Positions 7,774 through 9,372 of a stretch of 64,000 bases of DNA are shown here, piece by piece. The stretch comes from a virus: positions 54,568 through 118,567 of the IMG/VR virus record IMGVR_UViG_3300048762_000248; one strand, written 5' to 3'. The notes under the pieces were generated by a model, which did not search any database, had not been told where the DNA came from, and saw only the letters and a program-made list of their open reading frames with translations. The position numbers were made by a program, and so were the translations under genes. How positions within the stretch are numbered: position 1 is the first letter of the stretch; every line of letters starts with the position of its first letter.

Positions 7774-7811
7774 ATCGTACCACATCCAGACCGAAATGTC
7801 AATAGATGTAT
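7774..7811 (-). promoter_or_regulatory. Sigma70-like promoter with a CATCTA extension: CATCTATTGACA, 17-nt spacer, TACGAT; the -10 ends 6 nt before the ATG
   Basis: Minus-strand reading: TACATCTATTGACATTTCGGTCTGGATGTGGTACGATTGAAGTATG. Confidence 0.5.
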
Positions 7812-7827
7812 CTACAAACGACATATT

Positions 7828-8121
7828 TTACCACTCTTCGGGATTGTGCGTCAACAGTTGACCAGCAAATGCCCTGATGTTCTCCGCAATGGTGATAAGG
7901 TGGTCGCAATCTTCTTGCAAACCGATTATTGGTGTATTGAATGCTTCATTGCTTCCGGGCACGCCGTCTTCATCCGCCTTTTTCCGCAACGCCGGAATGT
8001 TCTTATGAGCGGTATTGATGGCCTTTAAGTGGGCCTTCATTTGCCGCTGTAATGTCCACAAATAATTGATGTTGGTGTCCAGATGAACAATCGTTTTGGG
8101 TGTGTTTTTGCCTGTTTTCAT
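7828..8121 (-). CDS. Hypothetical protein; Met start at 8121 inside listed ORF 7828..8283
   Basis: The protein-like part MKTGKNTPKTIVHLDTNINYLW... runs to the stop at 7828. Confidence 0.35.
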   Translation of the reverse strand: MKTGKNTPKTIVHLDTNINYLWTLQRQMKAHLKAINTAHKNIPALRKKADEDGVPGSNEAFNTPIIGLQEDCDHLITIAENIRAFAGQLLTHNPEEW

Positions 8122-8355
8122 TTTATGATCTCTTTGCCGGGTGGTGTGAACTTTGAAGTTCAGAAGGATTCTGATAAGGATTTGAAATGCGAAAAACAAG
8201 CATAGTTGTTTCCTTGTCGCACACACTTTTGCTGCTGTGGAGAAATACTGCGCCAGGGCGGTGAGATGCGCCAAATTTTCCAAGCCTTCGGATGTTGCTT
8301 GCTGTGAAATTTGTTCCGCCGTAATTTCAGATCAGTGATTGTTTTGTCATTCATA

Positions 8356-8574
8356 TCAATCGGCTTTGCCGCTCCAAATCTCTTCAAATTCAAGTTCTGA
8401 CCGCTGTTGAATTTCTGTAAGCAGCGCTTGGAATTTCTTATACTCCATTTCCAAACGAACAAGTTCTTCGTGTTCTTCGACGGTCACTTTGCGCTGTGCG
8501 GCATTGGTAATATCTGGATTCGAATCGCAACACATGCGAAATGGATCGTCCTCATACACTGAGATTCGTGGCAT
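8356..8574 (-). CDS. Hypothetical small acidic protein
   Basis: 72-aa ORF with an ATG start. Confidence 0.4.
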   Translation of the reverse strand: MPRISVYEDDPFRMCCDSNPDITNAAQRKVTVEEHEELVRLEMEYKKFQALLTEIQQRSELEFEEIWSGKAD

Positions 8575-8586
8575 ATTTTCCTTTTC

Positions 8587-8886
8587 CTATCGCAGATAGG
8601 CGGGACCGTATTCGCCCATCCAACCCAAACCGTTTTTGGAATCGAAGATGTTGCCACGTGCGTGTTTGGCCGGGGTTTTCCAGGAAGCGGCTTTCAGGAT
8701 ATCGCCGTTCCGCTTGTCAACGAAGCAGTGAACGCCGGTACCACGAATGACCTTGACATAACGAGTGCCTTCTTCGAAGCGGAAGCCATCACGCATCGTG
8801 AAATCTTGTTTGTCACAATAATTGGTGTAGATTTTCTCACATGATTTTCTCACATCCGGCAAAGAATATTGCGAAGGCGGATTCAA
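8587..8886 (-). CDS. Hypothetical protein; the listed start is TTG and the true start is uncertain
   Basis: 99-aa ORF. An upstream promoter-like element GTAGGTATTGACT-N17-CTATTA is present. Confidence 0.35.
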   Translation of the reverse strand: MNPPSQYSLPDVRKSCEKIYTNYCDKQDFTMRDGFRFEEGTRYVKVIRGTGVHCFVDKRNGDILKAASWKTPAKHARGNIFDSKNGLGWMGEYGPAYLR

Positions 8887-8967
8887 ACTTCGTTTCGTCC
8901 ATCCATTTGTTCGTCATGCTTTAATAATAGCAAATTTCCTGGCTGGAAGTCAATACCTACATCTTTT

Positions 8968-9327
8968 TTATTTTGAGGCGAACTCTTCCACCGACAATGT
9001 GAGCCGACTTCCATCGCTGCTGATCTTGTCGATACACCACTTCGTCACGGTAACCTCTATGTTAGCATCGACTTCACCGGAGTTGTCGATTAGGTAATCT
9101 TCGACGGACTCACGGAATTGCCGCCCCTGTTCAACCGGGTCGGTCACTTCCAGGCCCGAGCAAATGTCCGACAGTTCTTCGCTGGACAGTTCTACTTCGA
9201 TCTCACCATTCACCGCCGCAACGAAGTCTTGTGATGCAAGCGGGCCGCTCCCGGCACCTGATGGGTAATCGCCGGGATCGTCCCATCGTTCAAGCTCGAT
9301 CTTTAGAGAGTTCGTAATGGTTTTCAT
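8968..9327 (-). CDS. Acidic hypothetical protein
   Basis: 119 aa with an ATG start. The conserved promoter motif lies upstream. Confidence 0.5.
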   Translation of the reverse strand: MKTITNSLKIELERWDDPGDYPSGAGSGPLASQDFVAAVNGEIEVELSSEELSDICSGLEVTDPVEQGRQFRESVEDYLIDNSGEVDANIEVTVTKWCIDKISSDGSRLTLSVEEFASK

Positions 9328-9335
9328 ATTTCAAT

Positions 9336-9372
9336 AGTATCAAATTTCTTAGCCAGAAGTCAATAGATGCAT
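9336..9372 (-). promoter_or_regulatory. Sigma70-like promoter: ATGCATCTATTGACT, 16-nt spacer, GATACT, then 8 nt to the ATG
   Basis: Minus-strand reading: ATATGCATCTATTGACTTCTGGCTAAGAAATTTGATACTATTGAAATATG. Confidence 0.5.

Follow-up and report, generated by a model that had tools for sequence, protein, structure and literature searches.

Extended -10 and late-type promoters adjoining start codons in an uncultured T4-like phage suggest leaderless early and late genes

Introduction

Transcripts that begin at an initiation codon have been described in several settings. Among phages they include lambda cI expressed from PRM and the middle and late genes of the Thermus phages phiYS40 and P23-45, members of other phage families than the one considered here, in which the -10 element likewise lies right before the start codon and yields a 5'-AUG mRNA. 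Phage transcripts have been called "often leaderless" (PMC5312081). In bacteria, the hexamer TANNNT, with its first T about 12 nucleotides (nt) before the start codon, is a published signature of leaderless genes; in these TA-led genes of Deinococcus-Thermus and Actinobacteria the hexamer ends 6-7 nt from the start and serves as the promoter -10, no Shine-Dalgarno (SD) sequence is present, and the mRNA has no 5' untranslated region (PMC3160421; PMC12340547). Here we analyse a 64,000-nt stretch of the uncultured virus record IMGVR_UViG_3300048762_000248, hereafter the window. An original prediction had noticed in it a recurrent promoter motif, extended upstream by CATCTA and placed a few nucleotides before start codons, and had proposed that such promoters give rise to leaderless early mRNAs.

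The window is part of a T4-like myovirus: it encodes gp5 (with OB and trimerisation domains), a gp6-like baseplate wedge, gp25, a PAAR protein, an ATP-dependent DNA ligase and more than 20 tRNA genes. The best cultured relative of its gp6 is that of Pelagibacter phage HTVC008M, at 39% identity. T4-type early promoters are read by host sigma-70 polymerase, are conserved beyond the two hexamers, stand before ORFans and tRNA genes and carry an A/T-rich tract further upstream, which in T4-type promoters is UP-like and rich in A and covers -40 to -44 (Nolan et al. 2006, PMC1524935). T4 late promoters depend on gp55, gp33 and gp45 (PMC2988020) and consist of an 8-bp motif that spans -13 to -6 (PMC2988020; PMC1524935); all T4-related genomes sequenced as of a 2010 review carry gp55 (PMC2988020). 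A third relevant system is formed by the PeSLs, recombination-prone early-promoter cassettes in hyperplastic regions of T4-like genomes (PMC2839356; PMC4122927), defined by a stem-loop just 5' of the promoter and by an SD and start codon at the 3' end (PMC4122927). Do the promoters of the window follow any of these schemes?

Results and Discussion

Extended -10 promoters adjoin start codons

The motif CATCTATTGAC(A/T) (CATCTATTGACW) has three exact matches, 7797-7808, 9358-9369 and 50824-50835, each of them on the minus strand, against 0.00 matches in 100 shuffles. Once two mismatches are allowed the 12-mer is no longer enriched (11 observed, 12.4 expected), so the signal is carried by the exact copies only. 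A fourth minus-strand site, at 8948, had been counted with these three; it lacks CATCTA and is a variant (GTAGGTATTGACT) reading AAGATGTAGGTATTGACT. All four sites have the form of sigma-70-type promoters with an extended -10, TTGACW-N14/15-TGnTAnnnT: the -35 is TTGACA or TTGACT, the spacer 17-18 nt, and TGn directly precedes TAnnnT at each (TGGTACGAT, TGCTATTAT, TGATACTAT and TGGTATATT). With the TG extension taken into account, the -10 of the 9358 site is better read as TGA-TACTAT than as the GATACT first assigned to it. Throughout the window, TTGACN-N13-16-TGNTANNNT occurs at 17 sites where 0.83 are expected, and generic sigma-70-like matches at 1-20 kb stay near expectation (50 versus 44.6). 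MotA-type middle promoters are ruled out by the lack of a TGCTT box and the presence of good -35 hexamers.

How far do these promoters lie from the genes behind them? The hexamers had been placed 6-8 nt before the ATG; they do adjoin it, ending exactly 6 nt before it at all four sites, and each of these ATG codons opens an open reading frame (ORF). When the ATG codons behind all 178 TGNTANNNT sites of the window are counted by distance, the count peaks sharply at 6 nt. TGNTANNNT-N6-ATG occurs 11 times (3.25 expected, standard deviation 1.84), a number that 0 of 100 shuffles reached, and nine of the 11 matches are starts of substantial ORFs (483, 3462, 7767, 8917, 9327, 10066, 22420, 50179 and 50794). 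This constant 6-nt spacing places the ATG with its A on the canonical +1. A same geometry had also been claimed for four plus-strand promoters. It holds, at 8 nt, for those at 20673 and 23732; the promoter at 11943 precedes a leader with an SD, and the one at 12486 is ambiguous (Table 1).

The tandem units at 7.3-9.4 kb have no terminators between them. Public gene calls of this region miss the 51-amino-acid (aa) gene and truncate the DUF7717 gene; gene callers that depend on a ribosome-binding site are the likely cause. Close to P9363, a near-consensus element, TTGACA-N16-TACAAT (9381-9408, plus strand, 11 of 12 positions), points away from it and runs antisense to a 192-aa gene (9446-10024); either an antisense promoter or chance could account for it.

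Start codons and ribosome-binding sites

Are the adjoining codons the true starts? Homologous N-termini or family profiles confirm this for the 119-aa, gp25-like and cytidylyltransferase-like genes and, after removal of a duplication, support it for the DUF7717 gene. The 119-aa protein, also encoded by two further contigs (Logan, 79 kb; JGI, 118.6 kb), has the same start column in 14 of 16 homologues (N-terminus MK.I..LK..ERWDDPGDYPSGAGSGPL). In the homologue on the phage contig L004 a canonical GGAGGA precedes the equivalent start; the start codon is shared, then, and only the signal preceding it differs. The contigs that encode these homologues (L003-L006) are unrelated phages and provide no promoter comparison. 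At 483, position 1 of the PF01467 cytidylyltransferase profile aligns with residue 5, and the gp25-like product of a GTG start, (M)PQNITHRYSDF, aligns with T4 gp25, MANINKLYSDI. In the gene at 8917, a tandem duplication of 13 nt (ATGTGAGAAAATC twice, 8830-8855, minus strand) breaks the frame after 26 codons. Without one repeat copy the gene encodes a 105-aa DUF7717 product that matches PF24835 from residue 21, upstream of the break.

A second tandem duplication was seen in the related contig L002 (9921-9936, minus strand): two copies of the 8-nt GATTATAC lie behind TTGACA-N14-TGCTATGAT-tccatc-ATG and leave an 11-codon ORF. In the window as in L002 the duplication is out of frame, and dropping one copy rejoins the frame with the downstream ORF. 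These two duplications inside leaderless-type genes could be assembly errors, real inactivations or switches.

As predicted, no SD was found upstream of the four starts. The same applies to the candidate genes at large, which have no SD upstream and no in-frame downstream alternative start with one; the 6-nt gap between -10 and ATG is too short for any functional SD spacing to fit. Internal cistrons of the same units carry SD-like purine tracts or stop/start overlaps (AAGGA before 8574, TGATATG at 8354, TAATG at 7612). The first 35 nt of 26 candidate mRNAs are weakly structured, with a mean minimum free energy of -1.83 kcal/mol, compared with -3.93 kcal/mol for random ATG windows (p = 1.4e-5).

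Late-type promoters adjoin start codons as well

The original prediction missed a second class of promoters with equal placement and thereby understated the case. The T4-late-type motif NNTAAATN is followed at 5 (sometimes 6) nt by ATG or GTG at 12 starts in the window: 10024, 17417, 19283, 26841, 33167, 35349, 36279, 39979, 41945, 45369, 53831 and 59654. TAAATA-N5-ATG is found nine times against 0.87 expected, no shuffle of 100 reaching nine, and 15 of the 46 TAAATA sites have an ATG at 5-6 nt. As the T4 motif spans -13 to -6, a start codon set off from it by 5 nt has its A or G at +1. The class resembles T4 late promoters in its 8-bp motif, in variants of the form (T/A/C)NTAAATA known from other T4-like phages, and in the genes it serves: an TATAAATA-like 8-mer precedes the orthologue of a T4 late gene, the gp25-like gene at 59654, and the 698-aa structural gene at 53831. 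We ruled out that the TATAAATA motifs are sigma-70 -10 elements; the invariant T at -7 is absent. No gp55 gene was identified in the window among the 25 of 31 matched Pfam families that were listed.

Both classes meet in the 41-nt divergent region at 10025-10065, where an extended -10 and a late-type promoter stand back to back, each adjoining its own start codon. Altogether about 14 extended -10 and about 12 late-type promoters adjoin a start codon, which corresponds to roughly a quarter of the genes of the window. Several late-type promoters overlap the 3' ends of tRNA genes (for example, 36266-36273).

Table 1. Promoters, upstream elements and adjoining genes of the window (positions counted from its first nucleotide)
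Feature	Position	Strand	Description
Upstream element TAGATACATCTA	7803-7814	-	perfect inverted repeat TAGAT-AC-ATCTA; adjoins -35, about -47 to -36, centre -41.5
Promoter P7802	7774-7802	-	-35 TTGACA (7797-7802), 17-nt spacer ending TGG, -10 TACGAT (7774-7779)
51-aa ORF	7612-7767	-	ATG (7765-7767) 6 nt past P7802 -10; first cistron, followed by 91-aa and 792-aa genes
Promoter P8953	8924-8965	-	variant upstream element AAGATGTAGGTA, -35 TTGACT (8948-8953), 18-nt spacer ending TGC, -10 TATTAT (8924-8929)
DUF7717-family gene	8587-8917	-	ATG (8915-8917) 6 nt past P8953 -10; frame broken by duplication
Promoter P9363	9334-9375	-	upstream AATATGCATCTA, -35 TTGACT (9358-9363), 18-nt spacer ending TGA, -10 TACTAT (9334-9339)
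119-aa gene	8968-9327	-	ATG (9325-9327) 6 nt past P9363 -10
Promoter P50829	50801-50841	-	upstream TAAATACATCTA, -35 TTGACT (50824-50829), 17-nt spacer ending TGG, -10 TATATT (50801-50806)
93-aa gene	50513-50794	-	ATG (50792-50794) 6 nt past P50829 -10; opening codons ATGACGAACAAA as in gene at 8917 (repeat family D18)
Extended -10 of cytidylyltransferase-like gene	481-498	-	TGTTAAACT-aaagga-ATG (481-483); -35 weak
Promoter of 169-aa gene	3460-3497	-	TTGCAA-N17-(TGC)TATATT-tggagt-ATG
Divergent intergenic region, 41 nt (10025-10065)	10025-10068	both	plus TGCTATCAT-gaaaat-ATG (10066); minus TATAAATG-tccgc-ATG (10024)
Promoter 11943	11943-11994	+	TTGACA-N17-TATCAT, then gaaaaGTGAAGGGGtattttATG; SD-like AAGGGG 7 nt before ATG 11992; not leaderless
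Promoter 12486	12486-12530	+	TTGACA-N14-TGTTACGAT; ATG at +5 opens 20-codon ORF; 135-aa ORF from ATG 12528, 13 nt past -10
Promoter 20673	20673-20712	+	TTGACA-N17-(TGC)TATCAT, 8 nt, ATG 20710 (54 aa); predicted leader 0-2 nt
Promoter of 63-aa gene	22384-22422	+	TTGACA-N18-(TGA)TATGTT-taataa-ATG
Promoter 23732	23732-23771	+	TTGACT-N17-(TGG)TATGAT, 8 nt, ATG 23769 (ATP-dependent DNA ligase, 388 aa)
Promoter of 87-aa gene	27964-27980	+	TGGTATAAT-gaact-ATG, distance 5
Promoter P42671	42652-42700	+	TAGATACATC 9 nt 5' of TTGACT; normal leader of about 45 nt before 840-aa gene
Promoter of 148-aa gene	50177-50194	-	TGCTATCCT-tcaatc-ATG
Promoter P51398 of YidD-like gene	51359-51398	-	TTGACG-N18-(TGC)TATTGT, 7 nt, GTG 51361 (74 aa)
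Late-type, 249-aa gene	17415-17430	-	TATAAATA-tattt-ATG
Late-type, 205-aa gene	19269-19285	+	TATAAATA-ttcttc-ATG, distance 6
Seven more late-type NNTAAATN motifs	26828-45371	+	5-6 nt before starts, scattered among tRNA genes
Late-type, 698-aa repeat-rich structural gene	53818-53833	+	TCTAAATA-ctgat-GTG
Late-type, gp25-like baseplate gene (59654-60049, PF04965 match)	59641-59656	+	TCTAAATA-ccttt-GTG

Related and control phages

Three related uncultured contigs were found, each matching part of the window. L002 is syntenic with 41.7-63.7 kb at about 70% nucleotide identity; an ATG follows eight of its 54 extended -10 sites at a distance of 6 nt. Between the orthologues at 50179 (window) and 6623 (L002) the promoter sequences differ and the 6-nt gap is the same. 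The gp25 orthologues (59654 and 12012) likewise keep their spacing, with TCTAAATAccttt-GTG in one and ACTAAATAgaagt-GTG in the other, the L002 copy reading ACTAAATA-gaagt-GTG. L128 has 60-64% amino-acid identity with 1.3-14.6 kb, the neighbourhood of the CATCTA cluster, and carries two promoters of the form GATACATCTATTGACA-N14-TGnTAnnnT-N6-ATG. One of them drives the homologue of the window's ORF 7828-8121, itself an internal cistron without a promoter of its own. The L128 orthologue of the gene at 10024 retains its late-type promoter, TCTAAATG-gatgc-ATG, at N5. L127 contains one cassette copy, TAGATGTACCTATTGACT...TGCTATTCTtaaaccATG.

A degenerate cassette scan of IMG/VR returned mostly single, chance-level matches, and re-scoring of its loci gave L128, L127 and arrays in unrelated contigs. 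A megablast of 25 kb of the window against 50,697 phage records gave zero nucleotide matches. Nothing was found with the 792-aa LAGLIDADG protein as bait for relatives in IMG/VR, with gp5 against JGI metagenome contigs, or with the GMP-reductase-like gene, as a host clue, against GTDB genomes.

Is the late-type placement a general property of T4-like phages? Gaps between TATAAATA and the ATG cluster at 21-28 nt in T4, at 23-26 nt in the cyanophage P-HM2 and at about 29 nt in the OM43 phage Melnitz. In the pelagiphage HTVC008M, by contrast, they peak at 5 nt, as in the window. There, 12 of 129 TAAATA sites fit, and (T/A/C)NTAAATA lies 5 nt before the annotated starts of baseplate-wedge, baseplate tail-tube-cap, DNA-end-protector, tape-measure and tail-completion genes, among others. 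In 80 more distant gp6-bearing IMG/VR loci (L013-L092), which are not mutually independent, 22 of 164 TATAAATA motifs are followed by an ATG at 5 nt. Placement of the late class at the start codon is thus common to part of this marine and freshwater T4-like radiation and is not a general T4 trait.

The early class recurs elsewhere, too. Four unrelated IMG/VR contigs (L139, L154, L167 and L094) hold arrays of near-identical promoter-N6-ATGAAA cassettes before successive small ORFs, of the form TTGACA-N14-TGGTATAAT-N6-ATGAAA. L139, in which an ATG lies 6 nt behind nine of the 37 extended -10 sites, carries TTGACAaacccctcccaactTGGTATAATacactcATGAAAAAAG and variants of it. This suggests that the early-class architecture is widespread in uncultured phages.

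At L002 3075-3125 (plus strand), a G+C-rich hairpin with a T-run (GGGCGGCTTCCGAAAGGGGTCGCCCGCTTTTG) runs straight into TGTTATAAT-gaagac-ATG; it resembles a terminator merged with an extended -10 promoter that lacks a separate -35.

A proposed path from promoter to protein

We consider it probable that the four sites are early promoters adjoining their ATG codons and producing leaderless first cistrons, accompanied by a late class of like placement and, in one early subfamily, by an upstream element. In this explanation, host RNA polymerase with its primary sigma factor would read the -35 TTGAC(A/T), the TGn and the -10 TAnnnT of the early promoters, and transcription would begin at the A of the ATG, the seventh base past the hexamer and the canonical +1. 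A late polymerase carrying a gp55-type factor would likewise start at the start codon, from TATAAATA at -13 to -6. The resulting mRNAs would open with 5'-AUG, occasionally 5'-GUG, without leader or SD, and ribosomes would bind the terminal start codon directly; downstream cistrons would rely on weak SD tracts or on stop/start overlap and translational coupling. The leaderless step itself, which the original prediction had also put forward, is strongly suggested by spacing, start codons, lack of SD, conservation and the literature, and we regard it as likely. The upstream element would mark one early-promoter subfamily, most likely as a contact site for a regulator or RNA polymerase that travels on a promoter cassette moved between genes by recombination.

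An upstream element at the edge of the -35

CATCTA is the 3' half of an element of about 12 bp, (T/A)AGAT(A/G)(C/T)A(C/T)CTA, that adjoins the -35 hexamer. In an alignment of 11 cassettes from four phages, the 12 nt at the -35 edge read (T/A)(A/G)GAT(A/G)(C/T)A(C/T)CTA. Information content in these cassettes amounts to 0.5-1.6 bits per position over the element, the final two positions of which the search pattern had set in advance; the spacer reaches about 0.5 and the more distant 5' flank about 0.2. At about 18-20 nt 5' of TTGAC there is an A-rich tract. With the A of the ATG taken as +1, the element covers approximately -47 to -36. The perfect TAGAT-AC-ATCTA found at P7802 recurs at L128 6014, and other copies are one or two mismatches off. 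Matches to AGATNNATCT were found as well, and GATACATCTA is identical in the window and L128 (4901, 6004). The element holds a fixed position in 10 of the 11 cassettes. Related sequences are also seen in other registers, TAGATACATC at 9 nt 5' of the -35 of the leadered P42671 and the palindrome AGATGCATCT inside the spacer of P51398.

Class II activator and operator sites, such as those of CRP and FNR or lambda cI at PRM, are centred at -41.5. The candidate element resembles them in length, in its partly palindromic make-up and in its centre at about -41.5 on the upstream edge of the -35; it differs in that most copies hold an imperfect palindrome and in that these promoters already have near-consensus -35 and extended -10 elements, so that activation should not be needed. 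The pattern is more in keeping with a protein-binding site than with a simple contact of RNA polymerase. The suggestion that CATCTA is a factor-binding element finds some backing in its conservation in four phages, its partial palindrome and its position; on balance we lean slightly towards a specific function.

Could the extension instead be functionless and merely hitch-hike on recombining promoter cassettes, as has been proposed for PeSLs, with the promoters and their leaderless geometry being real? The window shares several traits with PeSLs: conserved sigma-70-type early-promoter cassettes with an AT-rich flank are repeated (11 in four phages) before small ORFan genes in variable regions, and the pairing of cassette and gene differs between relatives, the L128 cassette preceding the homologue of a gene that, in the window, is internal and has no promoter. 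Most of the spacer, too, is common to P9363 and P8953 (TTGACTTCyrGCyArGAAATTTGmTAyTATTrAAryATGA), and three promoters share the -10 region and ATGACGAAC(AAA) before unrelated proteins (family D18). PeSLs as defined, however, have an upstream stem-loop and an SD. No stem-loop was found in the 60 nt 5' of six cassettes (z-scores 1.10, -0.37, 0.20, 0.79, -1.60 and 0.20), there is no SD, and the ATG lies 6 nt past the -10, which rules out PeSL membership. Among phages at about 60-70% identity, moreover, spacers have diverged whereas the 10-12 nt at the -35 stay conserved; the identity of GATACATCTA in window and L128 and the copies in other registers also speak against mere hitch-hiking. We regard a functionless extension as unlikely, if clearly the strongest of the alternatives, and retain the contact-site explanation.

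Leaders, genome compaction and chance

Another alternative accepts the promoters and denies that the adjoining ATG codons are translated leaderless: the messages would be read-through transcripts or carry leaders of 2-10 nt, translated in a non-SD, A/U-rich and S1-dependent manner, and the spacing would reflect genome compaction. SD usage is indeed low across the window, several sites lie at 5, 7 or 8 nt and not at 6, and nested read-through transcripts are expected at 7.3-9.4 kb, where terminators are lacking. Compaction alone, however, predicts a spread of distances, not sharp peaks at 6 nt (extended -10) and 5 nt (late) with near-empty neighbouring bins. These peaks fall on the canonical +1 of both promoter classes, and T4, P-HM2 and Melnitz are equally compact, yet have leaders of 20-30 nt. 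We judge this alternative improbable. That the promoters are chance AT-rich hexamers near starts, or the start codons mis-called, has next to no probability and is already refuted at the level of sequence statistics: generic promoter matches and the two-mismatch 12-mer do sit at expectation, but the exact 12-mer and the extended -10 promoters far exceed it, 100 shuffles never reached the fixed-distance patterns, homologues confirm start codons, and the geometry recurs in L002, L128 and L127.

Several observations weigh against the explanation that we prefer, early and late promoters giving leaderless messages with a functional upstream element. Two of the 11 N6 matches (10857 and 62374) are probably chance. 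Early-type sites deviate from 6 nt, with 5 nt at 27978, 7 nt at 7561 and at the GTG at 51361, and 8 nt at 20710 and 23769, and start-point selection can move by 1-2 nt. The -35 boxes at 483, 50179, 10066 and 27978 are weak. One early-type and two late-type genes begin with GTG, a codon from which leaderless mRNAs are poorly started in E. coli. As expressed genes, the first cistrons behind P7802 (51 aa) and P8953 (broken by the duplication) are putative, and the gene set consists of the calls of a simple self-trained scorer, a crude caller. The random ATG windows of the structure comparison are a weak control because gene starts are generally poorly structured. As to the upstream element, only two or three copies are clean palindromes, and part of its conservation could come from the copying of cassettes.

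Known and new features of the arrangement

A -10 adjoining the start codon is already known as a leaderless signature, as are extended-consensus early promoters of T4-like phages and PeSL cassettes. Unlike the TA-led genes, the arrangement described here belongs to a T4-like phage of 42% G+C, and it combines a strong TTGACA -35 and a TGn with a second promoter class, TATAAATA. Compared with T4 early promoters, the -35 is TTGAC(A/T) and not GTTTAC, the flank is AGAT(A/G)(C/T)A(C/T)CTA and not an A-tract, and the predicted mRNAs lack the SD-bearing leaders of T4 early messages. Compared with T4 late promoters, the ATG follows the motif at 5 nt, in the window as in HTVC008M. In the literature searched, and within that search only, the arrangement has not been described for T4-like phages. 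What appears to be new is its systematic placement in such a phage, its extension to TATAAATA, the lineage- or host-restricted distribution of the late trait, and the element at -41.5.

If transcription starts at the ATG, roughly a quarter of the genes would be expressed from leaderless mRNAs, in both the host-sigma and the gp55-type late class. This would break with the T4 model, in which SD-led mRNAs are regulated by RegA and RegB; here the late promoter would have been re-positioned to -13 to -6 of the start codon. The late trait is common to the SAR11 phage and not to the OM43, cyanobacterial and coliphage relatives, a distribution that may provide a sequence-readable clue to host translation biology. 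Cassette arrays in unrelated metagenomic contigs indicate that the phenomenon may exceed this lineage, and the compact promoter/start-codon cassettes of about 45 bp, with their candidate operator, are directly testable.

Might leaderless expression even be a deliberate take-over strategy? This lineage and the cassette-array phages (L139, L154, L167 and L094) would then place 5'-AUG first cistrons in nearly every early and late unit, disable SD-dependent initiation by the host and have their own messages translated, with AGATACATCTA at -41.5 as the operator through which a phage regulator times one early sub-class. Possible routes would be a nuclease acting on GGAG or on the anti-Shine-Dalgarno, or an altered balance of initiation factors. 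We consider this strategy quite improbable.

Other features of the window

Some promoters and genes stand apart from the adjoining class or beside it. Promoter 10561 was ruled out as a promoter of a leaderless gene, as it drives a tRNA-like gene and not a protein. The gene behind P51398 (51137-51361, minus strand) encodes a YidD-like membrane-insertion factor (PF01809) whose GTG lies 7 nt past TGCTATTGT; a homologue is present in L002. Directly 5' of the ligase promoter, 23156-23683 (plus strand) encodes a 175-aa protein with an RF-1 (peptide-chain release factor) domain and a GGQ motif; the gene is a candidate for ribosome rescue or a release-factor-like function in a phage with more than 20 tRNAs. 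A PDB search left the N-terminus of the ligase undecided. Directly 5' of the ATG at 20455, a unit of 12-13 nt, AAATGAAAAAAC(C/A)A, is repeated in tandem three to four times (20404-20453, plus strand).

The tRNA genes lie at 21.8-48.9 kb amid small ORFs and homing-endonuclease-like genes, three of the Endonuclease_7 type and two of the LAGLIDADG type. Two segments of 99 nt, 27441-27539 and 35958-36056, have 75% identity, an indication of paralogous endonuclease genes. The 840-aa protein encoded at 42745-45267 (plus strand) matches the shoulder and repeat domains of the major vault protein (PF11978, PF17795) and is kept in L002 at 72% nucleotide identity. In-frame coding repeats with periods of 51 and 102 nt occur in the 698-aa structural gene (53831-55927), and one with a period of 216 nt in the gene for a 406-aa DUF4379 zinc-finger protein (58328-59548).

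The tRNA-like gene at 10602-10810 (plus strand) has its anticodon loop interrupted by an insert of about 138 nt. ARAGORN made no call, and Rfam gave no match at E<=1. The 5' half reads CAGCGGG-TA-GCTCAGTTGGTAGAGC-G-CCAAC and the 3' half GTTGG-AGGTC-GGATGTTCGAATCGTTC-CCCGCTG-A-CCA; the fold z-score is -3.0, promoter 10561 lies in front, and an Endonuclease_7/HNH gene (10856-11548) lies behind.

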